Positions 34,977-64,000 of a DNA stretch of 64,000 nt are shown one piece after another. The number at the start of each line of letters is the position of its first letter. Position 1 is the first letter of the stretch. The stretch covers positions 12,844 through 76,843 of the forward strand of contig JAPLYN010000006.1 of the NCBI GenBank assembly GCA_026395515.1, in the 5' to 3' direction. Below the pieces are notes generated by a model. It was not told the DNA's origin and searched no databases. It saw only the letters and a program-made list of their open reading frames with translations. This stretch comes from Candidatus Peregrinibacteria bacterium (GTDB lineage: Bacteria > Patescibacteriota > Gracilibacteria > UBA1369 > LOWO2-01-FULL-3). The translations under genes and the position numbers were made by a program.

Positions 34977-35411
34977 ATGGAAATCAAAAACATCGACGAC
35001 CTCATGACCCAGCTCGGGAACTTTTTAAACACTTACTACTATTATGCGGTAGCAGCTGGAGTAATCATTACGATTATTATCGTTGTGATCGCCCTCAAAA
35101 TTCGTCTAAAAATTATTAACAAAGGCAAAGGAAAATCCGATTCTTCATCTGATGCCGGCAGTATGATTATGTCTCTTCTCATCGGCAGCAATCCGGAAAT
35201 TCTCAATCAAATGGTCGACGAAAAAGCTAAGCATAAAGAAAAAATCATCGAAGAAATTAAAAGATTCAGCAAAATCAAAGACTTCAAAAAAATAAATGAC
35301 AGCACTGCAGAAATTACAGTAGAAATCGACGGCGAAGAACACTGGTACCGCGCAAAAACCACAGCCGATGGACACAAACCAAAGATTCTTTCCCTAAGTA
35401 AAATTAAATAG
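34977..35411 (+). CDS. Small membrane-anchored hypothetical protein, 144 aa
   Basis: Single hydrophobic segment (YYYAVAAGVIITIIIVVIALKI). Divergent from pyrB. Confidence 0.55.
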   Translation: MEIKNIDDLMTQLGNFLNTYYYYAVAAGVIITIIIVVIALKIRLKIINKGKGKSDSSSDAGSMIMSLLIGSNPEILNQMVDEKAKHKEKIIEEIKRFSKIKDFKKINDSTAEITVEIDGEEHWYRAKTTADGHKPKILSLSKIK

Positions 35412-35469: not shown

Positions 35470-36540
35470 ATGTCAAAAGCCACACTTATCCTTAAAGACG
35501 GCACTCGCCTCACTGGCGAAAGCTTCGGAGCAGACGTCGCGTCTGCGGGAGAGGTTGTTTTCAATACTGGTATGATGGGCTACCCAGAGAGCTTTTCTGA
35601 TCCTTCCTACACAGGACAGATCATGGTTCTTACCTATCCGCTTATTGGAAATTATGGAGTTGGTGCCGACAGCAAAGACAAAGACGGCGTAGAAAAAAGA
35701 TTTGAAAGTGGAAAAATTCACATCAAAGGACTTATCGTTAGCGAATATTCTGAAAACTACAGCCACTGGGATGCAAAAAAATCTCTCAGCACTTGGCTTA
35801 AAGAAAATAATATTCCAGCAATCACTGGAATAGACACTCGCGCTCTTACTCAAAAAATCCGTCAGACCGGTACTATTCTAGGAAAAATTGTTCCGGAAAA
35901 AGCTACTGACACTGAATTCTACAATCCCGACCTCGACAATCTAGTTGATCAAGTTTCTATCAAGAAACCTAAAGTTTACGAGAAAGGAAAAAAGAGAATC
36001 ATCTGCGTAGATTGCGGTATGAAAAACAACATTCTTCGCAATTTTCTCGATCGCGATGTCACTGTCGTGAGAGTTCCTTGGAATTATGACTTCATTGCTG
36101 CCGGCGAAAAGTTCGACGGAATTTTCTTGTCTAATGGTCCGGGCGATCCTTCTATGCTCACAGAACTTCACGCTATTGTCCGCAAAGCTATTGCTCTCAA
36201 AAAACCAATTTTTGGAATCTGTCTCGGCTGCCAAATTATGGCTCTCGCGACTGGCGCCAAGACTTATAAATTAAAATTCGGTCACCGTTCTCAGAATCAG
36301 CCATGTATAGACGTTGATACTGAACGCTGCTATATCACAAGCCAAAATCACGGCTTCGCTGTTGATGAAAAAACTCTTAAACCAGGCTGGCAAGTTTGGC
36401 TTCGCAATGCCAATGACCAGACAGTAGAAGGAATCAAGCACAAGACACTTCCCTTCTTCTCTTGCCAATTCCACCCTGAAGCAACTCCAGGTCCTACAGA
36501 CACAACAAAATTCTTCGATCAATTCGTAGACCTGTTATAA
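35470..36540 (+). CDS. carA: Carbamoyl-phosphate synthase small (glutaminase) subunit
   Basis: ..VFNTGMMGYPES.SDPSY.GQI....PLIGNYG...; GATase triad context (GICLGCQ, QFHPE). Confidence 0.94.
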   Translation: MSKATLILKDGTRLTGESFGADVASAGEVVFNTGMMGYPESFSDPSYTGQIMVLTYPLIGNYGVGADSKDKDGVEKRFESGKIHIKGLIVSEYSENYSHWDAKKSLSTWLKENNIPAITGIDTRALTQKIRQTGTILGKIVPEKATDTEFYNPDLDNLVDQVSIKKPKVYEKGKKRIICVDCGMKNNILRNFLDRDVTVVRVPWNYDFIAAGEKFDGIFLSNGPGDPSMLTELHAIVRKAIALKKPIFGICLGCQIMALATGAKTYKLKFGHRSQNQPCIDVDTERCYITSQNHGFAVDEKTLKPGWQVWLRNANDQTVEGIKHKTLPFFSCQFHPEATPGPTDTTKFFDQFVDLL

Positions 36541-36556
36541 AAAAATTACCCCAGAT

Positions 36557-36935
36557 ACCAAAAACCCACTGACGAATCAATGGGAAAGTTTTAGACAGCA
36601 AAGACGTTTTGTTTTACTGGGAGCTTTTATTTTTGTTTTATAATCCGGCCAAGGTTTAGTGTTGTTTTCAGCCGCACCACCGGCCGCCTGGGCTCTTCAT
36701 AGACTAAGTATCAATGACGATGACTTGCTAGAAGCAGGACGGTACTCAGAACTGTCTGAGCAGCTTCGGCTGTCTACCTAGGGCAGAGAACCATTCCTTA
36801 GCGAGGAAGGCAGAGCGAACGATATTTTTCATTCACTCCAGCTCTCATCGCTATGAGAGATTTTTTGTTTTTGTTTCGAGATCTTGAGTGTTAATGAGCG
36901 GTGCTTTTCTAGGGCATTTGATTTCTTTTGAAATC
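36557..36935 (-). ncRNA. Candidate ~380-nt structured ncRNA, copy 1 (family unknown)
   Basis: Minus-strand TTGACA (36968-36963), a 16-nt spacer, TATAGT (36946-36941). A 5' hairpin GATTTC-AAAA-GAAATC spans 36935-36920. The terminator hairpin at 36584-36565 has a UUCG loop and is followed by UUUUUGGU. There is no conserved ORF. Confidence 0.45.
36842..36872 (+). terminator. Plus-strand intrinsic terminator inside repeat copy 1
   Basis: CTCTCAT-CGCT-ATGAGAG followed by ATTTTTTGTTTTTG. It would end a carA transcript that carries a ~330-nt 3' UTR. Confidence 0.5.
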
Positions 36936-37141
36936 ACATCACTATAGCAGGTATGAGTTTATTGTCAAAAAACTATAGTGGACGAATAGCGTAAAGTATT
37001 GTAAAGCAACATTCCCTAAAGATATGCAAATCTTCCCCTTTTCATACTTCCCCACACTCTCCAAAACTTCTCAAGTCCTATCTTTTGACTTTTACACTCA
37101 AAAAAAATATCTTCAACCTCCTAAAATAACTTTTTGAACAC

Positions 37142-39262
37142 ATGGCAGAATCAGAATTAGCAGTACAAGAAGAAAAAATTATAGACCCTCTTGCAGGTGA
37201 AGAACTTTCACAAGAAGACATTGATAAAGAAGTTCAATCAAGAATAGATGCCATTGAATTTGCCACAAAAGAAGAAATAATAGCCGCTTTAAGATCAAGT
37301 AATCCAACAGCAACTAGATATTTAGCCGCATTTTCAAAAAAAGATTTGCCTAGACTTACCAAAGCCGAAGTAGCCGATCTCGCCAAAGAATCTCCAAATA
37401 CAGCTGCGTCTGCACAAATTAAAAACTTAAACGTATCAGCTAGATTCATACGTCATCGTCTAAAAATAGAATCAGAAGTAACTGAAGGAAACAACAACGT
37501 AGTAAACCGTGTTCTATGCAATACCAGAATCAGGATTACAGGACAATCCGTTCCCCCATTCGTAGTTGAACTCCATCAAGCAGTAAGAGAAAAAATTCCG
37601 ACTCAAAATTCCAAAAAAGCAGAATTACTAGAACTAATTATCGATCAATATTTAGGAATTCCATTAGTAAATCTATCTGCCTATTTAGATCTTGAACCTG
37701 CCGACATATCAGCAGCAATTGAATCAATCAACGAAGAACTAAAATCTTCAAAAGTAAAAATTCATATTCGTAATGGAGTAGCAGTCATCGGAGATACAAA
37801 CGGATATATAACTCTATTCGACAACGCCGAAACTAGAAAAAATCTTTTCCCAAAGAAAAAAGAAGAAGCTCAGACAGAAACTGCAGATGCAAAAGCAACA
37901 AGACTAGAATCCGAATTAGGCGCAGCCTTAGCAGCATTAGCAGCAGAAAAGGAAAAGACTACCGCTGCCGAAACAACAATAGCAGAACTCACACGAAAAC
38001 TTTCAGAAGCAGAAGACATGGCCCTAGAAGCAGATGAAAAAGCTGGACAAGCCGAATCTAAAGCCACAAATCTCGAAGCAGAAAAACAAACTCTTACAGC
38101 ACAAGTATCAAAACTAGAATTAGATATTCAAGAATCTTTAAGAATATCCGCAGAAACAGCACAAGGAAGCGGATTAGAAGAGTTGAGAAAAGGAAAAGAA
38201 AAAGTGGAAGCAGAAGTAAAAAGACTAGAAGCAAAATTAGAAGCAAAAACGGCTGAACTTACTACCTCAAGAGAAGAATCCAGAACAGCACGTGAAGAAG
38301 CCCGTGTAGCAAAATCAGTTGAATCAACTCTAAGAAAACAATTAGAGGCAGCAAAAAAACAAGCCGCCGATGCTGAAGAAGCAAGAGGTGCAGCTATGAG
38401 AAAAGCAGGTAGAGGTGGAGTAGATGTTGATTCTGCAAAAGATAAAGCAACCATCCAAGATCTACAGGAAACAATAAGAAGAGGAGAAGAACAAAATAGA
38501 TCATTAAGAATCCAACTTCAAAGACAGAATGGATTAGCAACCATCCACCCTGAAGAATTAGCGAGACTAAAAAGAAACTCCACGGAATTAAATGGAGCAT
38601 CAGAAACAATCAGAAATCTACAAAGACAACTAGAAGCAAAAGAATCCCCTGCCCAACCTGAACAAAAAGACTCATCAGAACTAATTCAATTAAGAGCAAA
38701 ATTGGCAGAAAAAGATGCAGCTCTAATCAAAGCTCAACAAGATCTAGCTCAATCAACACAACAATTCACAGTTTTAACTAACGAACTTCGCGAAACTACC
38801 GAACTTCTAGAATCAGCAACTAGTTCAACCCCAGCCGCAAAAGGCCCTGAACCAAAAGTCACTGCAGTCGCTGCACCAGCTAAAACTCCGATTCCTACGC
38901 CAAAAAATCCTACAGTCGTCATACCAGCTCAAGCGCCAAAACCTAAACCTGCTCCAATTGAAGACCCCATCGAACAAATTAAAAAAAATGACTTCAGCAA
39001 TAGTGAAGCATTAATAAATACAGTCAATAAAGCCCTCACTCTAAACGCCGGAACCAATCAACACGGATTACCAAAGGCAAAATTAAGAGACATCCGCAAC
39101 GCCTTAACAAACCTACAATTTGGAAAAGATTCTTGGCTACACGATACCAGAGTAAAAATTGTAAAGGCGCTTAATGACATGAAAGAAAAAGGAAATGGCG
39201 ATCACATTCCAGTGGAAGCAGTTGAAGCATGCATAAGAACCATAGACGTATTACCTAAATAA
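37142..39262 (+). CDS. Coiled-coil protein, 706 aa (N-terminal globular part, long Ala/Glu/Lys-rich heptad region, Pro-rich linker, C-terminal domain)
   Basis: Long ATG ORF. The central ~300 aa are A/E/K/L/T-rich, as in coiled coils. No enzymatic motif recognised. Confidence 0.75.
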   Translation: MAESELAVQEEKIIDPLAGEELSQEDIDKEVQSRIDAIEFATKEEIIAALRSSNPTATRYLAAFSKKDLPRLTKAEVADLAKESPNTAASAQIKNLNVSARFIRHRLKIESEVTEGNNNVVNRVLCNTRIRITGQSVPPFVVELHQAVREKIPTQNSKKAELLELIIDQYLGIPLVNLSAYLDLEPADISAAIESINEELKSSKVKIHIRNGVAVIGDTNGYITLFDNAETRKNLFPKKKEEAQTETADAKATRLESELGAALAALAAEKEKTTAAETTIAELTRKLSEAEDMALEADEKAGQAESKATNLEAEKQTLTAQVSKLELDIQESLRISAETAQGSGLEELRKGKEKVEAEVKRLEAKLEAKTAELTTSREESRTAREEARVAKSVESTLRKQLEAAKKQAADAEEARGAAMRKAGRGGVDVDSAKDKATIQDLQETIRRGEEQNRSLRIQLQRQNGLATIHPEELARLKRNSTELNGASETIRNLQRQLEAKESPAQPEQKDSSELIQLRAKLAEKDAALIKAQQDLAQSTQQFTVLTNELRETTELLESATSSTPAAKGPEPKVTAVAAPAKTPIPTPKNPTVVIPAQAPKPKPAPIEDPIEQIKKNDFSNSEALINTVNKALTLNAGTNQHGLPKAKLRDIRNALTNLQFGKDSWLHDTRVKIVKALNDMKEKGNGDHIPVEAVEACIRTIDVLPK

Positions 39263-39756
39263 AAACTCCCCCACATACCAAAAACCCACCGACGAATCGA
39301 TGGGAAAGTTTTAATCAGTAAGAAATTTTTGTTTTTACTGGGAGCTTTTATTTTTGTTTTTACATCCAGCCAAGGTTTAGTGTTGTTTTCAGCCGCACCA
39401 CCGGCCGTCTGGGCTCTTCTAGACGAAATGTCAATGAAGACGAATTGCTAGAAGCAGAACGGTGCTCAGAACTGTCTGAGCTGCTTCGGCTGTCTACCTA
39501 GGGCAGAGAACCATCCCTTAGCGGGGACAGAAGAGCGAACGATATTTTTCATTCACTCCATCTCTCGTCGCTAAGACAAGATTTTTTTGTTTTTGTTTTG
39601 AACTTTCTTGAGTGTTAATGAGCAACTTTGCTTTTCTAGGGCATTGATTTCTTCTTGTTGAAATCACATCACTATAGCAGGACTGAGTTTATTGTCAAAA
39701 TTCTGTTCTAGACACATGCCTAATAATATTGCGAAACAATTTTTCCTAAAGATATT
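39263..39756. repeat. Direct repeat copy 2 (~494 bp, non-coding)
   Basis: Colinear with 36541-37025. It begins at the first base after the stop of the coiled-coil gene. Confidence 0.9.
39277..39665 (-). ncRNA. Candidate ~390-nt structured ncRNA, copy 2
   Basis: Minus-strand TTGACA (39698-39693), a 16-nt spacer, TATAGT (39676-39671). The 5' hairpin GATTTC/GAAATC (39665-39646) has an 8-nt loop. The terminator hairpin spans 39304-39285, followed by a U-run. Confidence 0.45.
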
Positions 39757-39810
39757 CACCCTTGTAATAAATCGCCAAAATTGCTAACTATTAAATATAA
39801 ATATATTCGC

Positions 39811-42132
39811 ATGTTCGTCTCTCTCGACTTAGAAACCACAGGTTTTGACCCAAATATTGATAAGATTATTGAGTTTGGTGCAGTAAAATTTGATTTAACA
39901 GGAGAAAAAGAAACTCTGAAATTTTTCGTAAACCCAGGAGTTACCCTACCAAAAATCATCACTCATATTACAAACATCAAGGATTCTGACCTAAAAGACG
40001 CTCCCCCATTCGAAGACAAAAGAGCTGAAGTACAAGCCTTTATTGGCAACCTGCCAATCATTGGTCACAACATAAAATTCGATCTCGCATTTTTGGAAGC
40101 GAACAAAATTGAAATTAAAAACCCAAGCTACGATACTCAAGAACTTAGCGGAATTCTTTTACCAAACATGCCTTCTTACAGTTTGGAAATTCTCAGCGAA
40201 AAGTTAAATCTTACGCATTGCGAAAAGCATCGTGCTCTCGATGATTCCATCGCAGCTATGGAACTTTTTCTAAAATTAATTAAAGAATTTGAAAACCTTG
40301 AACCAGAACTTTTAGAGCAAATGAAAGCTCTCACTCAAAAGTCTAATTGGCCGCTAAAGAATCTTATTTCCAGCATTTCCAGCAAACCAAATCCCGAAGC
40401 TAAAGTTACAAAAAAAGAACCGAAAGAATTCACACCATCAGCAAATTCTCTCAAAATACTCGAGCACACTGAGTCTGCACTTTTCGAATTAATTCCACCA
40501 TACGACAATTTAATTAAAACTCTTTGCGAGAAAGCAGATGGCGATACTTGCATCGTAGTTCCCTATCAAACTTTCAGAAAAATAAATAGCGAAATATCTC
40601 ATGAAGTAAGCAAAGTAGACGTTGCAAAAAGCTATGTATCTTTGAAAAGACTAAAGAGATTTAGCGAAAAAGAATTCTTCGAAAATTACGAAATCAGCGC
40701 ACTTTTAAAATATTTAAACTGGAGCAAACAAACAAAAACCGGACTACTCAGCGAAGTCGCACTCTTCCACGATGAAAGAGCTACCATTCTTAAAGTAAAT
40801 ATCGACGAAAACATTACCAACCCTGAAGAAGAAATGTTCTTCAAAAAAGCGCTTGAAAAAGGCCAAAACAAAGCATCTCTCTACACCAATCAAGCACTTA
40901 TAGAAAACCCGCCGGAAAATAAAAGATTAATTCTCATCGACTTTGATAATTTTTTAAATTCACTACATTTTCACGCTTCAACTTATATAAAGCTTGAACC
41001 AGCAATTGATATTCTAAAAACTTTGGAAGAATATTTCCCAAGCGACCTCACTGTCACCACCTTGATCACCAAGACTACTATCCTCTTTGGTCTCCTTGGC
41101 ATTATTTTTGAAAGACACAACGATCAGAGTATTTACGGAGCAAAAAGCACAATTAATACAGATATTTTCCAAACAAAAGAATGGATAGATGCAGTGAATA
41201 GCTTAAACAACGTCATCGAAATTTCCCAAGAATTAGTAAATGTAAAAAATGAAGAAACAGCCGGCTCCCTCAAACAATGGAAAACATTTTTAAAGAATTT
41301 ATACAGCATTCTTTCTAAGCCAGATTTAGCAAACAACATGGTTTGGTTAGAAAAAGATCCACAATCAAATATAGTAATACGTAAAGCTCCTTTTTCTCTT
41401 AAAGAAGACCTGAAAAACATATTTGGCAAAGCAAAAAATTACCAAATTATTGATGAATGCGTGACTATTAATGACGACGGAAATTTCATCAAATCTCTAG
41501 GAAATTTAGATTCAAAATTACCAATCTACGATCTCAATCCGAAAGACGAAAAGATCGAAATTTATATTACAAAAGATACTGACGGTAGCGATCTAAACAA
41601 GATTCCGCGATTCATTGAAAAATACTACAAAGAAAAATCTCAAAACATTGTGATGCTTTTCAGCGCAAAAAAAGATCTAGAAGTCACCACCCTACAATTA
41701 AGCAAAGAAAATGTTCCAGTTCTTCCCCAATTAGCTGGATCCTTAGGCAAAATCCAAGAACGATACATTAGTGAAAAGAAATCACTTATGCCGCCAGTTC
41801 TTCTAGTTACTTCTCACATTTGGGAAAATTTCGAACCAAATCAAGACATCGACACCCTCATCATTTACAAAATTCCTTTCGATCCACCAAGTGATCCAAA
41901 AATTATTTCTCTTAGTCGAAATTACGCCAATGCCTTTATGGAATTACAAGTTCCCCTAGCCGTAAAATCTACAAAGAAAATTATCAATCGCCTAAAGAGC
42001 AGTCACGCAAATCTCAAAAAAGTAATCATTTTTGACATTCGTTTAACAAACAAAAAATACGCTGACGTATTCTTGGAAAATTTAAACTTAATGGCACCAA
42101 CAAGCGTCGTAAAACTCCACACTCTCCTATAA
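39811..42132 (+). CDS. DnaQ-like 3'-5' exonuclease fused to a DinG-family helicase-like region with degenerate ATPase motifs
   Basis: The ATG at 39811 gives MFVSLDLETTGFDP.. (ExoI), HNIKFDLAFL (ExoII) and HRALDDSIA (ExoIII). The C-terminal ..LIIYKIPFDPPSDP.. is DinG-like. I found no GxGK[ST] Walker A, and DFDN occupies the DEAH position. Confidence 0.7.
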   Translation: MFVSLDLETTGFDPNIDKIIEFGAVKFDLTGEKETLKFFVNPGVTLPKIITHITNIKDSDLKDAPPFEDKRAEVQAFIGNLPIIGHNIKFDLAFLEANKIEIKNPSYDTQELSGILLPNMPSYSLEILSEKLNLTHCEKHRALDDSIAAMELFLKLIKEFENLEPELLEQMKALTQKSNWPLKNLISSISSKPNPEAKVTKKEPKEFTPSANSLKILEHTESALFELIPPYDNLIKTLCEKADGDTCIVVPYQTFRKINSEISHEVSKVDVAKSYVSLKRLKRFSEKEFFENYEISALLKYLNWSKQTKTGLLSEVALFHDERATILKVNIDENITNPEEEMFFKKALEKGQNKASLYTNQALIENPPENKRLILIDFDNFLNSLHFHASTYIKLEPAIDILKTLEEYFPSDLTVTTLITKTTILFGLLGIIFERHNDQSIYGAKSTINTDIFQTKEWIDAVNSLNNVIEISQELVNVKNEETAGSLKQWKTFLKNLYSILSKPDLANNMVWLEKDPQSNIVIRKAPFSLKEDLKNIFGKAKNYQIIDECVTINDDGNFIKSLGNLDSKLPIYDLNPKDEKIEIYITKDTDGSDLNKIPRFIEKYYKEKSQNIVMLFSAKKDLEVTTLQLSKENVPVLPQLAGSLGKIQERYISEKKSLMPPVLLVTSHIWENFEPNQDIDTLIIYKIPFDPPSDPKIISLSRNYANAFMELQVPLAVKSTKKIINRLKSSHANLKKVIIFDIRLTNKKYADVFLENLNLMAPTSVVKLHTLL

Positions 42133-59098: not shown

Positions 59099-59175
59099 GC
59101 GCTCGTAGCTCAGATGGATAGAGCATCAGCTTGCGGAGCTGGGGGTCACAGGTTCGACTCCTGTCGGGCGCACCA
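59099..59175 (+). tRNA. tRNA-Arg, anticodon GCG, CCA encoded
   Basis: Hand-folded cloverleaf: acceptor GCGCTCG/CGGGCGC, D arm GCTC/GAGC, anticodon stem TCAGC/GCTGG with loop TT-GCG-GA, variable loop GGGTC, T arm ACAGG-TTCGACT-CCTGT, discriminator A, then CCA. Confidence 0.88.
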
Positions 59176-59226: not shown

Positions 59227-60960
59227 GTGCCAAAATTAACTCCTTTTGCATATCATATGACTGAGCCAGAATTAAATATAGACGACGACTCCTCTGGAAG
59301 AGATGAGGAAGACGCCATGTTGAAAGCCGGCTATGCTGGAATTCTTCATCAAAGATATCCATTTCACCCTACGGACACAGCCTCCTTTAATGATGAAAAC
59401 TCTTACGTTTTAAGCTTGGAAAAAGAGTACTTAGACATTCCACCTAATTTAGAATTTGGACGACTTTTTAATTCCATACCCGAAGAACATAGATCAAGAC
59501 TTAAAGATATTTGGAAATTAGTTGAAAATAATTATTTTGAATACTTAGAGATATGTGAAGATCTTGAACAAAAATGGACAACCGGTGTCCCCATCGATCA
59601 ATTAGGGGAATTTTCCGAAAGAATAGTTAAGGATTCAAAGATAATGATGATCCCAGAACTAAAAAACGGAGTAAGAGCCATAGTCGAAAAATCTTCAGAA
59701 AAGCGCGAACTAAGAACATGGAAAAGGGAAGAAAAAGCACTTCGTAAGTCACTTTATGATGTTACAAAAAAATATATAGTTTCCTTACGTCTATATTACG
59801 AGATGCTTCTAGAAAGCAACCCTGAAAAAAGAGGTGAAGATAAAGAAAACGAAGATTATGTTTTACCAAAGGATCATCAAGATCGCGATGAAATCGTAGA
59901 AAGAAATCGTTATCTCAGATACATCGATGCTGCACATCAAGGTATCGCAATTGGCAAAGCTGCTCATCATGGGCAAGAAAAAGGACGAATGAGAAAAACT
60001 GAAAAACTTCCATATATTATTCACGGAATGGATGTAAGTCATGCAACATCACTCGATGTTCTTCCTTATACCTTAGACCGAGGAATGGCAAACCTAGCGG
60101 TAATAATAGCTTTAGTAGGCCCAATTCACGATGTTATTGAGGATACAGATTTGAAAATGGAAGATCTTTTTGGAAGCCAAGGTTATCTAAAAAGATTAAC
60201 AGACGCATACGACAGCAGCCTAGATCCAAAAATTAAAAGCGGCTTTCCTACGCCAGATACAACCCGCGATAAAATAAAAGAAAAAGTCTTAAATCTTCTA
60301 AAGCCTGACGTATTTAAAATAGTGCAAGAAGTCCTAAGGTTAGTAAGCCATAACTCCCAATGGACAGATCAAGAGAAAGCCAAAGCTGTACAGCAATCGA
60401 TCCCAGGCAAAGAAACTACTATGAAAATTTTAGGAATCACTCCTGAAAAATACAAAGGATGGAAAGCAGATAAACCAGATAGAAGTAACAATACTTTCTT
60501 TGAATTCCCAGAGGAAACTGAAGAAAAAGAAAACAAATCGACTGCATTCCTAATGCGCATAAATGCTATGCACGGAGTAGAAAGCCGCCAAGTTGCCCTA
60601 ATAATTAAACTAGAAGATAGAGCAAATAACATTCTATCATTGGATAAAATGAAGCCTGAAAAACAAAGAAGTATGCTTCGCAGCACTACTTCCAGAGTAA
60701 TTGCTTGGGCAATGCTGGATCACGACAACAAAAACTATCCACTATACAATGCGCTTCCACGTTGTATTGATACAACCCTCAAAGGCTACGAAAAGTTCAT
60801 GGCCTCAAATCCAGAAGCAATCACAGACCTCGACCGTAGATACATAGCAGAACTAGAACAATGGCAAATAGATGTAAAACGCTTCGTTGTCCCCTCTAAA
60901 ATAATAGCAGTATTAAAGCGAAACAGAGAGCTGAAGTCTAAAGAATCTCAAGCTGCCTAG
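59227..60960 (+). CDS. Large protein with a central RelA/SpoT-type HD (ppGpp-hydrolase-like) domain
   Basis: ..AAHHGQEKGRMRKTEKLPYIIHGMDV.....VGPIHDVIEDTD.. and a distal ..IIKLEDRANNILSL.. The start is GTG at 59227 or ATG at 59257. No synthetase motif recognised. Confidence 0.65.
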   Translation: MPKLTPFAYHMTEPELNIDDDSSGRDEEDAMLKAGYAGILHQRYPFHPTDTASFNDENSYVLSLEKEYLDIPPNLEFGRLFNSIPEEHRSRLKDIWKLVENNYFEYLEICEDLEQKWTTGVPIDQLGEFSERIVKDSKIMMIPELKNGVRAIVEKSSEKRELRTWKREEKALRKSLYDVTKKYIVSLRLYYEMLLESNPEKRGEDKENEDYVLPKDHQDRDEIVERNRYLRYIDAAHQGIAIGKAAHHGQEKGRMRKTEKLPYIIHGMDVSHATSLDVLPYTLDRGMANLAVIIALVGPIHDVIEDTDLKMEDLFGSQGYLKRLTDAYDSSLDPKIKSGFPTPDTTRDKIKEKVLNLLKPDVFKIVQEVLRLVSHNSQWTDQEKAKAVQQSIPGKETTMKILGITPEKYKGWKADKPDRSNNTFFEFPEETEEKENKSTAFLMRINAMHGVESRQVALIIKLEDRANNILSLDKMKPEKQRSMLRSTTSRVIAWAMLDHDNKNYPLYNALPRCIDTTLKGYEKFMASNPEAITDLDRRYIAELEQWQIDVKRFVVPSKIIAVLKRNRELKSKESQAA

Positions 60961-63900
60961 TTTACCGTCTTCTTTCCAAATATCATTTCATTAATATTGC
61001 TCAACCAAGGATTTTTTCCATTCACCACAGTCAAAAGAACATTCACTGAAGTTTCTCCGGCAGCGATAGTTGCTGTTCCTGAAGCTAAAGTATAATCCGC
61101 TCCACTTCCTGTCGCTGTACCTCCGGTAACTGCGTAATCGACAGTCACACTCCATGGGAAAGAACTAGAAAGAGTTAAAGGTAAATTCACAGAAGTTACA
61201 GACTCAAGACCGCTTGCGCTTGTTGTAGAAAATCCTACATTCGGAAACTCAACCCATCTAAAATATGGATATCCATTATTTGTAGAAGTCCCAATATTCC
61301 AAATACTGCTGAAATCCCAACCAGCATCAGTAAAAGTAGACCCAGTTTTCATTTCTAAAGTAGTTTTTGCCACGCCTCCATCACTATCTCCTCTTCCTGA
61401 AGTTTCTGTATCCCATCCCGAAGCAGAAACGGTTCCAGTATTAGCTCCACAAAAACCCTTTGCACTTCCACCACTCACAGTGCCTAAAGAATATGAATTA
61501 CCTACAGTTCCTTCATTATTACCTACAAATCCTCCCACTCCACCAGAAGTTCCTACCACGTTACCACTAGAATATGAGCTGGAAACTCCCCCATTAGTTG
61601 AGGATTTATTATATCCGACAAATCCTCCCACGTATGAAGCTCCTGAAACGTTTGCTGTAGAATACGAACCTCCCACAAAAGCGCCAGTATCATTATATCC
61701 AATCAATCCACCATCATAATCTGCAAGACCAGTAACGGTTCCTGTGGAATATGAAAAATAAACATTAGCACCACTGCCGCTATATCCCAAAAGTCCTCCC
61801 ACTCCATTATCACCAGTTATATTTGCATTTTGAACACCAGTATAAATAATCAATCCACCATCACCAAGACCACCAAACAAACCAACTCCATTGGCAGCCG
61901 GCCTATTAATAAATAAATTTTTAACAGCGTATTTTTGTCCGTTAAAAGTACCCGTAAATTGAACACCTGGGTTCACAGTTCCAAGAGGCTCAAATCCCAA
62001 TCCACCATTCCACAAAGCCCCACCGGCATGAGTATCAGTCTGACAATCCACATCTCCTGTCAAAATATAATGACCGGCAAGATTTTCGCTAATCGCCTGC
62101 AATTCAGTACAAGTAGAAATAGAAACTGGAGTAACAACTGTAAAACTCCAAGTCGTAGCATCAGCTATGCCAGCATATGGATTATGAGCGGCATCCTCGA
62201 AAGTTCCCACATCCATTAGCACATGATATTCCGTCGTATAATCGAGCAAGCTTCCCATATGCAATATCACAGTGCTACCGCTAATACTTACATCATCTGT
62301 ATTTGTTGCAGTAATAGTTTGAAAAACACTTTCTCCCTGCATTACATAAATGTGCTTATCAGCCACAGCACTAACATTTTCGCCAAAGTTAATGGTCAAA
62401 GTTGCTGCAGGAGAAACACCCGTCGCATTATCTAGAGGAGAAAACGAACTCACTGAAGGTGGTGTGCTATCTGGAGGAGTAGGATCATCTAAAGTAGTGA
62501 AATTCCAAGTCGTACTATCAGCAATTCCAGTAATTGGATTCGAAGATGCATCAGTAAAAGCACCAGAATCAATTATCATATGATAAGCAGTGGAATAAGC
62601 TAAACTAGATGGTAAAGTAACCGCTACAGTCCCTCCAAGAACAGACACAGAACCTCCATCAACAGCAATAGTTGCAACTGTAGTTCCTCCATTCATCACA
62701 TACATATTTTTGCCACCCACAGCGATAACATTCTCATCAAAAACAACCGTAAGTCCGGTAGTAATAGACACTCCCGTGGCATTATCTGCCGGAGTTATAG
62801 AAGTAACCGAAGGAGGAGTCACATCTGGAGCAGCACCGGTATCAAAATTCCATGTTGTACTATCCGCAATTCCAGCAAATGGATTTCCAGACCCATCTTC
62901 AAAAGCTCCCACATCAACCAACACATGATAAGAAGTAGAGTAATCCAAAGGAGCAGCCAAATGCATCGTTACAACATTATCTGCCACCACCACTACAGCT
63001 CCATTAGTTGCCTCACTCGATTGAATAGTAGATCCTCCCTGCATTACAGTAATATATTTAGCCGCAATCGGAGTTACATTTTCAGTAAAAGTTAAAGTCA
63101 AATCAGTCGTACGAGACACCCCGGTAGCTTCATCTGCCGGCAACAAAGTTGAAACACTTGGAGGAGTCACATCTGGAGCAGCGCCGGTAGCAAAATTCCA
63201 TGTAGTAGAACTAGCAATTCCGGCAAATGGATTACCAAAAGTATCCTCAAAAGCACCAGCATCCATTGTCACATAATAACCGGTTGAATAATCCAAATTT
63301 GAATTCAAATCAATAACAACAATTGCATTAAGAATCGAAACTTTTATTCCATCCACAGCCACACTTTCAAAAGTGGTGTCATCAGCAATTCTTTTTACAT
63401 AGAGAAATTTACCCGCTACCGCGTTAACATTCTTATCAAAGGTAACAACTAAATTTGAACCTGCAGAAACTCCCGTAGCACCATCAGTAGGAGATAAAGT
63501 GGCAACCACCGGTGGTGTAGCCGTAGTAAAATTCCAATCAGTAGCACTGGAAATTCCAGCAATAGGATTCAAAGCAGCATCAGTAAAAGCTCCAGCATCA
63601 ATCAATATATTATAACCAGTAGTCCAATCCAAAGTTGTAGCCAAATTCACTTCCACACTAGCTCCGGTAACCGTAACCTTTGAACCATTAGTAACATCAA
63701 CCGATTCCACGACAGTTCCTCCTTGTTTAACAACGATATATTTTCCTGCAACAGCAACAACATTCTCATCAAAATTAATAGTCAAATTTGTATTTGGCGA
63801 AACTCCTGTAGCGTTATCAAGTGGAGTCAATGTCGTAATCGATGGAGCCGTAACATCTGGAGTAACTGTAGTAAAATTCCAAGTGGTTGAATCTGAAATA

Positions 63901-64000
63901 CCAGCATAACTCATACCCATCTCATCTACAAAAGCCCCCGAATCAATCAAAACATTATATTCAGTAGAAGGATCGAGGGTCACAGATAAATCAATAGTTA
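60957..64000 (-). CDS. Giant surface protein (N-terminus beyond the window): tandem ~105-aa Ig-like repeats, GLUG-motif region, Calx-beta-like C-terminal domain
   Basis: The frame stays open upstream of the track GTG at 63983 (..TIDLSVTLDPSTEY..). At least 7 repeats follow the pattern ..PPSV..L.P.D.ATGVS....L...F.ENV......I.V...G.......LDYST.Y.V..D.GAF.D..GNP.AGI.DSTTWNF.T. GGL[LI]GY / GGFVG[YN]N motifs follow, then VDYAVTGGTATGSGADYTLASGTATIAAGETS. Confidence 0.85.
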   Translation of the reverse strand, partial: TIDLSVTLDPSTEYNVLIDSGAFVDEMGMSYAGISDSTTWNFTTVTPDVTAPSITTLTPLDNATGVSPNTNLTINFDENVVAVAGKYIVVKQGGTVVESVDVTNGSKVTVTGASVEVNLATTLDWTTGYNILIDAGAFTDAALNPIAGISSATDWNFTTATPPVVATLSPTDGATGVSAGSNLVVTFDKNVNAVAGKFLYVKRIADDTTFESVAVDGIKVSILNAIVVIDLNSNLDYSTGYYVTMDAGAFEDTFGNPFAGIASSTTWNFATGAAPDVTPPSVSTLLPADEATGVSRTTDLTLTFTENVTPIAAKYITVMQGGSTIQSSEATNGAVVVVADNVVTMHLAAPLDYSTSYHVLVDVGAFEDGSGNPFAGIADSTTWNFDTGAAPDVTPPSVTSITPADNATGVSITTGLTVVFDENVIAVGGKNMYVMNGGTTVATIAVDGGSVSVLGGTVAVTLPSSLAYSTAYHMIIDSGAFTDASSNPITGIADSTTWNFTTLDDPTPPDSTPPSVSSFSPLDNATGVSPAATLTINFGENVSAVADKHIYVMQGESVFQTITATNTDDVSISGSTVILHMGSLLDYTTEYHVLMDVGTFEDAAHNPYAGIADATTWSFTVVTPVSISTCTELQAISENLAGHYILTGDVDCQTDTHAGGALWNGGLGFEPLGTVNPGVQFTGTFNGQKYAVKNLFINRPAANGVGLFGGLGDGGLIIYTGVQNANITGDNGVGGLLGYSGSGANVYFSYSTGTVTGLADYDGGLIGYNDTGAFVGGSYSTANVSGASYVGGFVGYNKSSTNGGVSSSYSSGNVVGTSGGVGGFVGNNEGTVGNSYSLGTVSGGSAKGFCGANTGTVSASGWDTETSGRGDSDGGVAKTTLEMKTGSTFTDAGWDFSSIWNIGTSTNNGYPYFRWVEFPNVGFSTTSASGLESVTSVNLPLTLSSSFPWSVTVDYAVTGGTATGSGADYTLASGTATIAAGETSVNVLLTVVNGKNPWLSNINEMIFGKKTVN

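Follow-up and report, generated by a model that had tools for sequence, protein, structure and literature searches.

A duplicated structured noncoding RNA gene and its homologs in Peribacteria

Introduction

What do two long direct repeats in the genome of a Candidatus Peregrinibacteria bacterium encode? The repeats lie in a stretch of 64,000 nucleotides (nt) of contig JAPLYN010000006.1 (GenBank assembly GCA_026395515.1, positions 12,844 to 76,843), which is termed the window. They are ~415-470 nt in length, 86-88% identical and 2720-2730 bp apart; no further sequence resembling them was found in the 64-kb window, and no open reading frame of at least 50 residues was found inside either copy. 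An earlier note, written from the sequence alone, had claimed that each copy is a complete minus-strand transcription unit for a candidate structured noncoding RNA (ncRNA) of ~380 nt. Here we describe the transcription signals, covariation-supported structure, distribution and genomic setting of this element. It is almost beyond doubt that the element represents a genuine family of ncRNA genes that Rfam lacks. We are also reasonably confident in the statement as a whole, in which the repeats are free-standing genes for ~380-nt structured ncRNAs, restricted to Peribacteria, to which a role as a sponge is attached by inference.

Peribacteria, a class of Candidatus Peregrinibacteriota, are tiny uncultivated bacteria within the candidate phyla radiation (CPR). 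To our knowledge, the CPR makes up a large share of bacterial diversity, and almost nothing is known about its ncRNAs beyond ribosomal RNA, tRNA and the universal RNAs. It is uncommon for a structured RNA to reach several hundred nucleotides and have invariant junctions; where the function of such RNAs has been solved, they are usually ribozymes, ribonucleoprotein scaffolds or global regulators.

Results

Each repeat copy carries a full set of transcription signals on the minus strand. Copy 1 (36557..36968; nhmmer E = 2e-126) spans promoter to terminator and has a predicted transcript of ~380 nt (36936 to 36557), whereas the predicted transcript of copy 2 (39277..39698) is ~390 nt (39666 to 39277). 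The sigma-70-type promoter of copy 1 (36941..36968) consists of a -35 box TTGACA (36968-36963), a 16-nt spacer, an extended -10 TG and a -10 box TATAGT (36946-36941). A consensus scan revealed the same TTGACA-16-TGnTATAGT layout in copy 2 (39671-39698). Both promoters match 11 of 12 consensus positions and are the sole such matches in the 4.2 kb scanned. At the other end, the intrinsic terminator of copy 1 (36557..36584, hairpin 36584-36565) has an 8-bp stem, a UUCG loop and a U tract, given by the terminator scan as CCCATTGA-TTCG-TCAGTGGG followed by TTTTTGGT; that of copy 2 occupies 39277-39304 (hairpin 39304-39285). Consensus and terminator scans together with folding thus placed the promoter, spacer, 5' hairpin and terminator of copy 1 exactly where the earlier note had put them, and the promoter (39698-39671), equivalent 5' hairpin and terminator that it had listed for copy 2 were confirmed as well.

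These signals are conserved. The boxes TTGAC(A/T) and TAnnnT are retained in 16/16 homologs having upstream sequence, and the -35, the -10 and the terminator in every homolog with the relevant flanks. The terminator helix (helix 10) has compensatory changes at 7/7 pairs, and a U-A versus C-G swap distinguishes the two window copies. The copy-1 terminator abuts the stop codon of carA (36540), and that of copy 2 the stop of a gene for a 706-residue (706-aa) protein; because the hairpin read on the plus strand has a trailing GUUUU, the RNA terminator probably stops transcription in both directions. Compared to dinucleotide shuffles, folding of the minus strand gave z = -4.6 for copy 1 and -5.65 for copy 2, against z = -1.3 for the plus strand. 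The G+C content is 0.46 across the element versus ~0.34 in the flanks.

The folded structure is further supported by covariation, the check that the earlier note had proposed for homologs of its candidate. A structure-blind MAFFT alignment of 22 sequences was analysed by RNAalifold, which predicted ten helices with 65 pairs in total; compensatory changes occur at 42 of these pairs. In total, 94.9% of the cells form a standard pair, compared to 33-48% when the partners are slid by 1-3 columns. Likewise, 42 pairs are changed on both sides, compared to 14-23 in the slid controls, and the corresponding numbers of cells are 211 and 29-48; for each of the three measures, 0/500 shuffles reached the observed value. 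In an all-against-all covariation scan, 11/11 top column pairs fall inside predicted helices. The same scan gave nothing convincing beyond the nested helices as to pseudoknots or tertiary pairs, and below the top 11 the signal is dominated by clade splits. A U-G pair is found at columns 286/474 in 22/22 sequences, and G-U pairs are frequent and some of them invariant; as such pairs would be A-C mismatches on the other strand, the RNA strand is the minus strand. Moreover, a core covariance model of 122 positions and 25 pairs, built without the sequences of the window or of its close relative L008 and run with filters off, recovered both copies in the window, with 113.9 bits for copy 2 (39365-39489) and 110.5 bits for the core of copy 1 (36644-36769) at E ~1e-34, the next best score being 13.3 bits. 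Transcription signals, strand-specific folding and covariation together support the central claim of the earlier note, a structured ncRNA read from the minus strand between promoter and terminator.

The RNA resembles no known family. Rfam 15 (4227 families/models) at gathering thresholds matched only a tRNA in the whole window and nothing over the element; over 144 kb from 14 homolog-bearing loci it gave zero matches. With relaxed filters and E up to 10, the region 36400-39900 produced chance-level matches only (bxd_6, snoTBR5, a viral pseudoknot and CrcZ at ~12 bits). ARAGORN found no transfer-messenger RNA (tmRNA) in the window, its only hit being a tRNA-Arg at 59099-59175. These searches agree with the earlier exclusion of tmRNA, RNase P RNA and signal recognition particle (SRP) RNA, and leave the candidate, in the window and in the 14 homologous loci alike, with zero family matches at gathering thresholds. 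Each of these classes also differs in features. RNase P RNA (RF00010/RF00011/RF00373) was rejected for want of an Rfam match, an end-to-end helix and a P4-like long-range pairing. The 3' end of the RNA is a terminator hairpin, and tmRNA (RF00023) gave neither an ARAGORN nor an Rfam match. SRP RNA (RF00169/RF01854) had no match, and the conserved loops CAGU and GUGGUG are not GNRA loops. 6S RNA (RF00013) likewise gave no match, and a length of 341-433 nt with branching at a five-way junction sets the RNA apart from it. Homology to CrcZ (RF01675) was also rejected, since the score is 11.5-12.1 bits against a gathering score of 95, at E = 3-5 and over A-rich tracts only. OLE, ROOL, GOLLD, raiA, HEARO and the other Rfam 15 families gave zero gathering-score matches in the window and the 14 loci.

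Two further classes were rejected on the basis of gene context. The neighbours of the RNA copies are carA, a coiled-coil protein gene and a DnaQ-DinG fusion gene. A cis-regulatory leader or riboswitch does not fit an RNA that ends in a terminator and whose next gene is the convergent carA or 706-aa gene. A mobile-element repeat (a miniature inverted-repeat transposable element, an insertion sequence end or an attachment site) does not fit two full-length direct copies in 64 kb, a fixed syntenic position and no partial duplicates. A full-text literature search found no description of the RNA. It is a new ncRNA family, absent from Rfam 15 and the searchable literature, in a poorly studied phylum.

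After removal of duplicates, 29 distinct homologs were obtained, 25 of which are full length (341-433 nt), nearly all in metagenome-assembled genomes (MAGs) of Peribacteria or Peregrinibacteria. When syntenic contigs were fetched through the CarA protein alone, the RNA was present in 7/7 with readable DNA, at the same place and on the same strand. An exact pattern of the most conserved block matched 14 stretches among 185,579 species-representative genomes. Thirteen of these are labelled Peribacteria, Peregrinibacteria, Patescibacteria or "bacterium", and the fourteenth lies on a contig of 2.4 kb that was binned as Chthoniobacter. The same block was found in 13 stretches of metagenome contigs and had zero matches in the viral contig collection; as viral contigs lack it, there is no sign of a phage-borne RNA. 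The CarA proteins closest to that of the window are encoded in MAGs carrying the labels Candidatus Peribacteria, Peregrinibacteria or Gracilibacteria, and these relatives bear out the CPR membership that had been proposed for the organism. The RNA family is restricted to Peribacteria (Peregrinibacteriota, CPR). The contig binned as Chthoniobacter (locus L016, CAYYAN010000257.1) carries the RNA together with a homolog of the 706-aa protein, and its label is probably a binning error for a Peribacteria fragment. The L016 RNA looks partly like copy 1 and partly like copy 2, a mosaic suggestive of gene conversion between paralogs.

The RNA consists of a 5' hairpin, a long irregular hairpin and a five-way junction, joined by conserved single-stranded A/C-rich tracts (AAACAAAAACAAAA). 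All of its elements lie on the minus strand; their copy-2 coordinates are given in brackets after those of copy 1. The 5'-terminal hairpin GAUUUC-AAAA-GAAAUC at 36920..36935 (39645-39666) starts at about +1, and RNAfold forms it in most of the 24 homologs folded singly. Its stem occurs as GAUUUC/GAAAUC, GAUUUUC/GAAAAUC, GAUUUUU/AAAAAUC or GAAUUC/GAAUUC. The motif GCCCUAGAAAAGC follows at 36903..36915 (39630-39642); it is predicted to be single-stranded and is near-invariant in 18/22 aligned sequences. A/C-rich linker 1 occupies 36863..36876 (39585-39598) and is near-invariant across homologs; in the whole window, this 14-mer (at most one mismatch) is confined to the two RNA copies. The long irregular hairpin at 36806..36846 (39526-39566) comprises helices 1 and 2, with compensatory changes at 12/16 pairs and a tip whose length varies between homologs.

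The five-way-junction core at 36645..36805 (39366-39525) is built from helices 3-8, which are 88-100% paired, with 21/38 pairs compensatory. It is closed by a long-range pairing of 36805-36796 (CUCGCUAAGG) with 36654-36645 (CCUUGGCCGG). Of its arms, the one at 36792-36768 is variable in length, that at 36762-36743 has a CAGU loop, and that at 36738-36687 has a variable tip; the arm CGGCCG-GUGGUG-CGGCUG at 36686-36669 has an invariant GUGGUG loop. The last arm is followed by the junction strand AAAACAACACUAAA (36668-36655), which is conserved and predicted to be unpaired. The block CGGUGGUGCG.CU is invariant in all homologs, and the block CAGGCGGCCGGUGGUGCGGCUGAAAACAACAC is almost invariant although the whole alignment is ~50% identical. 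Downstream of the core, A/C-rich linker 2 (AAAACAAAAAUAAAAG) at 36624..36639 (39345-39360) is conserved and predicted to be unpaired. It leads to a small hairpin CAGU...GCUG with the A/C-rich loop AAAACAAAA at 36596..36619 (39316-39340), which forms helix 9, with compensatory changes at 2/4 pairs and 93% of the cells paired.

Further analysis of the unpaired segments revealed A-rich (AAnAAnAA) motifs in AAACAAAAACAAAA, AAAACAAAAAUAAAAG, AAAACAACACUAAA and the AAAACAAAA loop, all of them conserved and in predicted-unpaired columns. In addition, A/C-rich tracts recur in lineage-specific insertions, namely the 5' hairpin loops of homologs L001, L023 and L002.

The strand CUCGCUAAGG (36796-36805) has two mutually exclusive partners, 36645-36654 on its 3' side and 36847-36855 on its 5' side. 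Pairing with the 3' strand CCUUGGCYGG is 98% canonical and includes four pairs with double changes. Pairing with the 5' strand CYUAGCGA, which would lengthen the long hairpin, is 85.5% canonical compared to 30-52% when slid, also with four pairs with double changes. From the aligned sequences, the dual pairing could reflect a conformational switch, a folding intermediate, or a by-product of similar partner strands. Another closing helix, GAAAAG (5') with CUUUUC (before the terminator), occurs in some homologs and is lost in L035 and L036; it was rejected as a core feature, and the CUUUUC strand is better explained as the U tract of the two-way terminator. Many sequences would also allow the 5' motif GCCCUAG to pair with CUAGGC (3' strand) or CUA(A)GGG, a pairing supported by zero double changes.

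Some smaller features of the element were also observed. The first junction-arm loop (36776-36784, minus strand) reads UGCCCUAGG in the sub-clade of the window only; there, the conserved 5' motif UGCCCUAG recurs in the loop, and the loop's palindrome CCUAGG could mediate loop-loop or intermolecular pairing. A GTCYA box (GTCCA at 36979-36983, GTCTA at 39709-39713, minus strand) lies 11-12 nt upstream of the -35 box and is kept in all homologs with upstream sequence; a regulator may bind there, or the box may belong to the promoter or transcription start of the divergent DnaQ-DinG gene. At 36842-36859, the plus strand has a terminator-like hairpin with a T run. On the minus strand its complement is an alternative hairpin, CUCUCAU/AUGAGAG, with A/C linker 1 coming after it. 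The plus-strand feature may be incidental, or may block antisense transcription reading through from carA.

The RNA genes sit in a conserved neighbourhood. The upstream gene is carA (35470-36540, plus strand), with pyrB and pyrC further upstream. The 706-aa gene (37142-39262, plus strand) lies between the copies and encodes a coiled-coil protein with no Pfam or NCBIfam match; after copy 2, the segment 39781-42132 encodes a DnaQ-family exonuclease fused to a DinG-family helicase and is divergent from the RNA. At nearly all loci, the RNA is convergent with the carA-side gene and divergent from DnaQ-DinG, even where DinG is only 43-47% identical, and in nearly every case no more than 70-350 nt separate the RNA gene from the beginning of DnaQ-DinG. 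Three further contigs, for which gene maps alone were available, have a gap of ~490-620 nt upstream of the DnaQ-DinG gene. The linkage to DinG is not absolute, because the RNA adjoins grpE-hrcA in L021 and L024, and L035 has two genes between the RNA and DinG; it may reflect only the conserved gene order of the clade. The pyrimidine cluster upstream of carA (pyrC, pyrB and others) is on the opposite strand, and carA is without a following carB in the window and in all relatives examined. Between pyrB and carA lies a gene for a conserved 144-aa protein with no family match (34977-35411).

Variable genes are concentrated in the segment from the carA stop to the RNA 3' end (36540-36557 and 39262-39277 in the window), a hot spot in which relatives have 0 to ~4.5 kb of unrelated genes, including SLH-domain and coiled-coil proteins and small open reading frames (loci L001, L002, L004, L006, L018-L020, L022, L029, L035 and L036). 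No partial RNA duplicate next to carA was found in the relatives with insertions. Most relatives sampled have one RNA copy in the stretch fetched; L008 (Ca. Peribacteria ZH-bin-154), a close relative of the window genome, also has two. Synteny in relatives shows that copy 2, divergent from DnaQ-DinG, occupies the ancestral position, and in both the window genome and L008 the two paralogs flank the inserted 706-aa gene.

Orthologous copies of the window and L008 are 96% and 98.5% identical, compared to 84-86% for paralogs, and since orthologs are more alike than paralogs, the duplication predates the split of the two genomes. The window paralogs differ in 44 unpaired columns but in only 8/65 pairs, three with compensatory and three with wobble-compatible changes. 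With so few pairs touched, mostly in a compensated or wobble-compatible manner, both copies are under selection for the fold. The likeliest history is that recombination at the RNA gene imported the 706-aa gene and duplicated the RNA. The 706-aa protein is 72% identical to its L008 counterpart, compared to 99% for CarA and 96% for DinG, and its gene is either fast-evolving or was replaced by recombination. A comparable repeat has been described in Ca. Peribacter riflensis, whose genomes each have a single direct-repeat region, with an alternative assembly path that would drop ~3 kb (PMC4736985); the repeat there may likewise be this RNA gene, duplicated around an insert. The G+C content of the Ca. 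Peribacter riflensis genome is 58.5%.

The remaining genes of the window are ordinary housekeeping genes. Tandem repeats of 336-348 bp at 62127-63906 correspond to Big_5 immunoglobulin-like domains in a 1008-aa protein (60957-63983, minus strand), probably a surface protein.

Discussion

What the RNA does can be proposed only tentatively. As one possibility, which we regard as short of even, the RNA is a protein-binding scaffold or sponge that acts in trans, and we infer it to be abundant. Its three to five AAYAAAAAYAAA tracts would serve as protein-binding platforms, in the manner in which the A-rich motifs of CrcZ titrate Hfq, and the junction core would either position the A/C tracts or interact with a second partner. 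In CrcZ, AAnAAnAA motifs are displayed to Hfq, and such A-rich motifs titrate this protein. We favour the scaffold or sponge because the A/C tracts are predicted to be unpaired, are over-conserved for neutral linkers, recur, and resemble CrcZ in arrangement; the A/C-rich 14-mer is near-invariant while the rest of the RNA is ~50% identical.

Several points weigh against this interpretation. The conserved five-way junction exceeds the needs of known sponge RNAs, which points toward ligand or RNA recognition or catalysis, and the A/C tracts could be mere linkers kept from pairing with other parts of the RNA. Moreover, transcription and the transcript ends are predictions from conserved signals. 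As to the structure itself, the shuffle control ignores phylogeny; the slid-partner control corrects for it and agrees.

The invariance of the five-way junction and the GUGGUG loop speaks for a more specific activity at the junction as well. In one reading, the RNA would be a sensor or catalyst of a new large-RNA class confined to Peribacteria, and not a passive sponge, with the invariant junction and GUGGUG loop as its active or sensing centre; a sensor of this kind might recognise tRNA 3' ends or a metabolite, possibly through the partner switch of CUCGCUAAGG. The junction strands and the loop are invariant while the helices covary freely, and the size and multi-helix junction are typical of tertiary-folded RNAs. 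The two partners of CUCGCUAAGG, both with compensatory changes (98% versus 85.5% paired), would suit a switch; the 5' pairing is the weaker, however, and its support could stem from the resemblance of the partner strands. Read by eye, UGGU within GUGGUG is complementary to the ACCA 3' end of tRNA and might pair with it. Pairing of the UGGU type with the tRNA 3' end is used by T-box RNAs and by the L15 loop of RNase P. None of the results indicates a ligand, substrate or cleavage site, the all-against-all scan detected no pseudoknot or tertiary covariation, and there is no similarity to any riboswitch or ribozyme model of Rfam, so we consider a sensor or catalyst unlikely. The free-standing gene with its own promoter and terminator, and the conserved segments predicted to be unpaired, would also suit a trans-acting regulator that base-pairs with mRNAs via GCCCUAGAAAAGC, AAAACAACACUAAA or the A/C tracts. 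However, complements of GCCCUAGAAAAGC and AAAACAACACUAAA had two non-self matches each (two mismatches allowed), within shuffle expectation, in a 64-kb window that covers 5% of one genome, and the RNA is several times longer and far more structured than typical base-pairing small RNAs; such a regulator is quite doubtful.

A diverged housekeeping RNA (RNase P RNA, tmRNA, SRP RNA or 6S RNA) missed by the Rfam models would explain the strong constitutive-type promoter, the single copy in most relatives sampled, and a length of 341-433 nt within the range of RNase P RNA and tmRNA. CPR genomes are also known for odd versions of core machinery. This is nevertheless very improbable: there is no model match at E up to 10 or in 14 further loci, ARAGORN found no tmRNA, and the family is found in one class only. 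The 5' and 3' ends are unpaired, and the RNA is without a T-loop, a CCA end, a P4-type GGAAAGUCC...CCGGCUUA pairing, a GNRA-capped SRP helix 8 or a 6S-like central bubble. Could the element instead have no RNA function at all, and combine DNA-level signals (divergent promoters, a two-way terminator, a recombination or integration site) or be the remnant of a mobile element? Its apparently two-way terminator adjoins the stop codon of the convergent gene, its promoter is back-to-back with the DnaQ-DinG gene, the segment from carA to the RNA 3' end is a variable-gene hot spot, and the two window copies flank an inserted gene, as after recombination. Yet DNA signals do not produce strand-specific compensatory changes in ten helices over ~300 nt. 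One or two copies occur at a fixed position in the relatives sampled, with no extra copies in the window, and the insertion-bearing relatives are without a partial RNA duplicate beside carA. Neither terminal inverted repeats, nor a nearby integrase or transposase, nor a viral-contig match was found. Because of the covariation, the DNA-level explanation is strongly disfavoured, and we regard it as hardly credible. Among these readings we retain the protein-binding scaffold or sponge as the tentative preference.

Whichever activity applies, a genome of ~1.2 Mb keeps a near-consensus promoter and two diverged, fold-preserving copies, an indication that the role of the RNA in the cell is important. 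Boundaries, a covariation-supported structure, a core covariance-model seed and a search pattern are now defined for the family, making it usable for RNA databases, metatranscriptome searches and in vitro structural work. The RNA gene also explains a direct repeat able to mislead genome assembly in these organisms. The present evidence overturns nothing and opens no long-standing question; the RNA is potentially much more interesting once its function is found.

Comparison with known systems places these findings in context. The closest functional analogy for the A/C tracts is found in CrcZ/CrcY/CrcX, the Hfq-titrating RNAs of Pseudomonas (RF01675). Like the Peribacteria RNA, they are free-standing RNAs of ~400 nt with an intrinsic terminator at the end, and CrcZ has several A-rich AAnAAnAA-type tracts, unpaired, between hairpins. 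They differ in a sigma-54/CbrB-dependent promoter, compared to the sigma-70-type promoter here, and CrcZ has no counterpart of the large conserved five-way junction; the hosts belong to unrelated phyla, and there is no homology in sequence or structure. A literature search on Hfq in Peribacteria found nothing. The CsrB/RsmZ sponges are alike as an idea, an abundant RNA that displays many unpaired copies of a short protein-binding motif. Their motif is GGA in hairpin loops, whereas the Peribacteria RNA has A/C-rich linkers and a far more complex core, and the two are not homologous. Bacterial RNase P RNA is similar in its length of ~340-430 nt, strong promoter and multi-helix junction, as well as in a GGU-containing loop for which pairing with the tRNA 3' CCA is possible in principle. 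The Peribacteria RNA lacks its conserved regions, P4 pseudoknot and paired ends, and is found in one class only.

The closest resemblance in kind is to the large RNAs raiA/ModT, OLE, ROOL, GOLLD and HEARO, which are long (200-800 nt) and multi-helix and have invariant junction nucleotides. They too came to light through comparative analysis, at a time when their functions were not known, and are restricted to particular lineages. Their host ranges are other than CPR Peribacteria. GOLLD and ROOL are associated with phages or tRNA clusters, an association not seen for the Peribacteria RNA, and OLE (oap genes) and HEARO (IscB gene) have adjacent partner-protein genes, none of which is adjacent here. 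Altogether, the Peribacteria RNA is unrelated in sequence and fold to raiA, OLE, ROOL and GOLLD, and belongs in kind with these orphan large structured RNAs.

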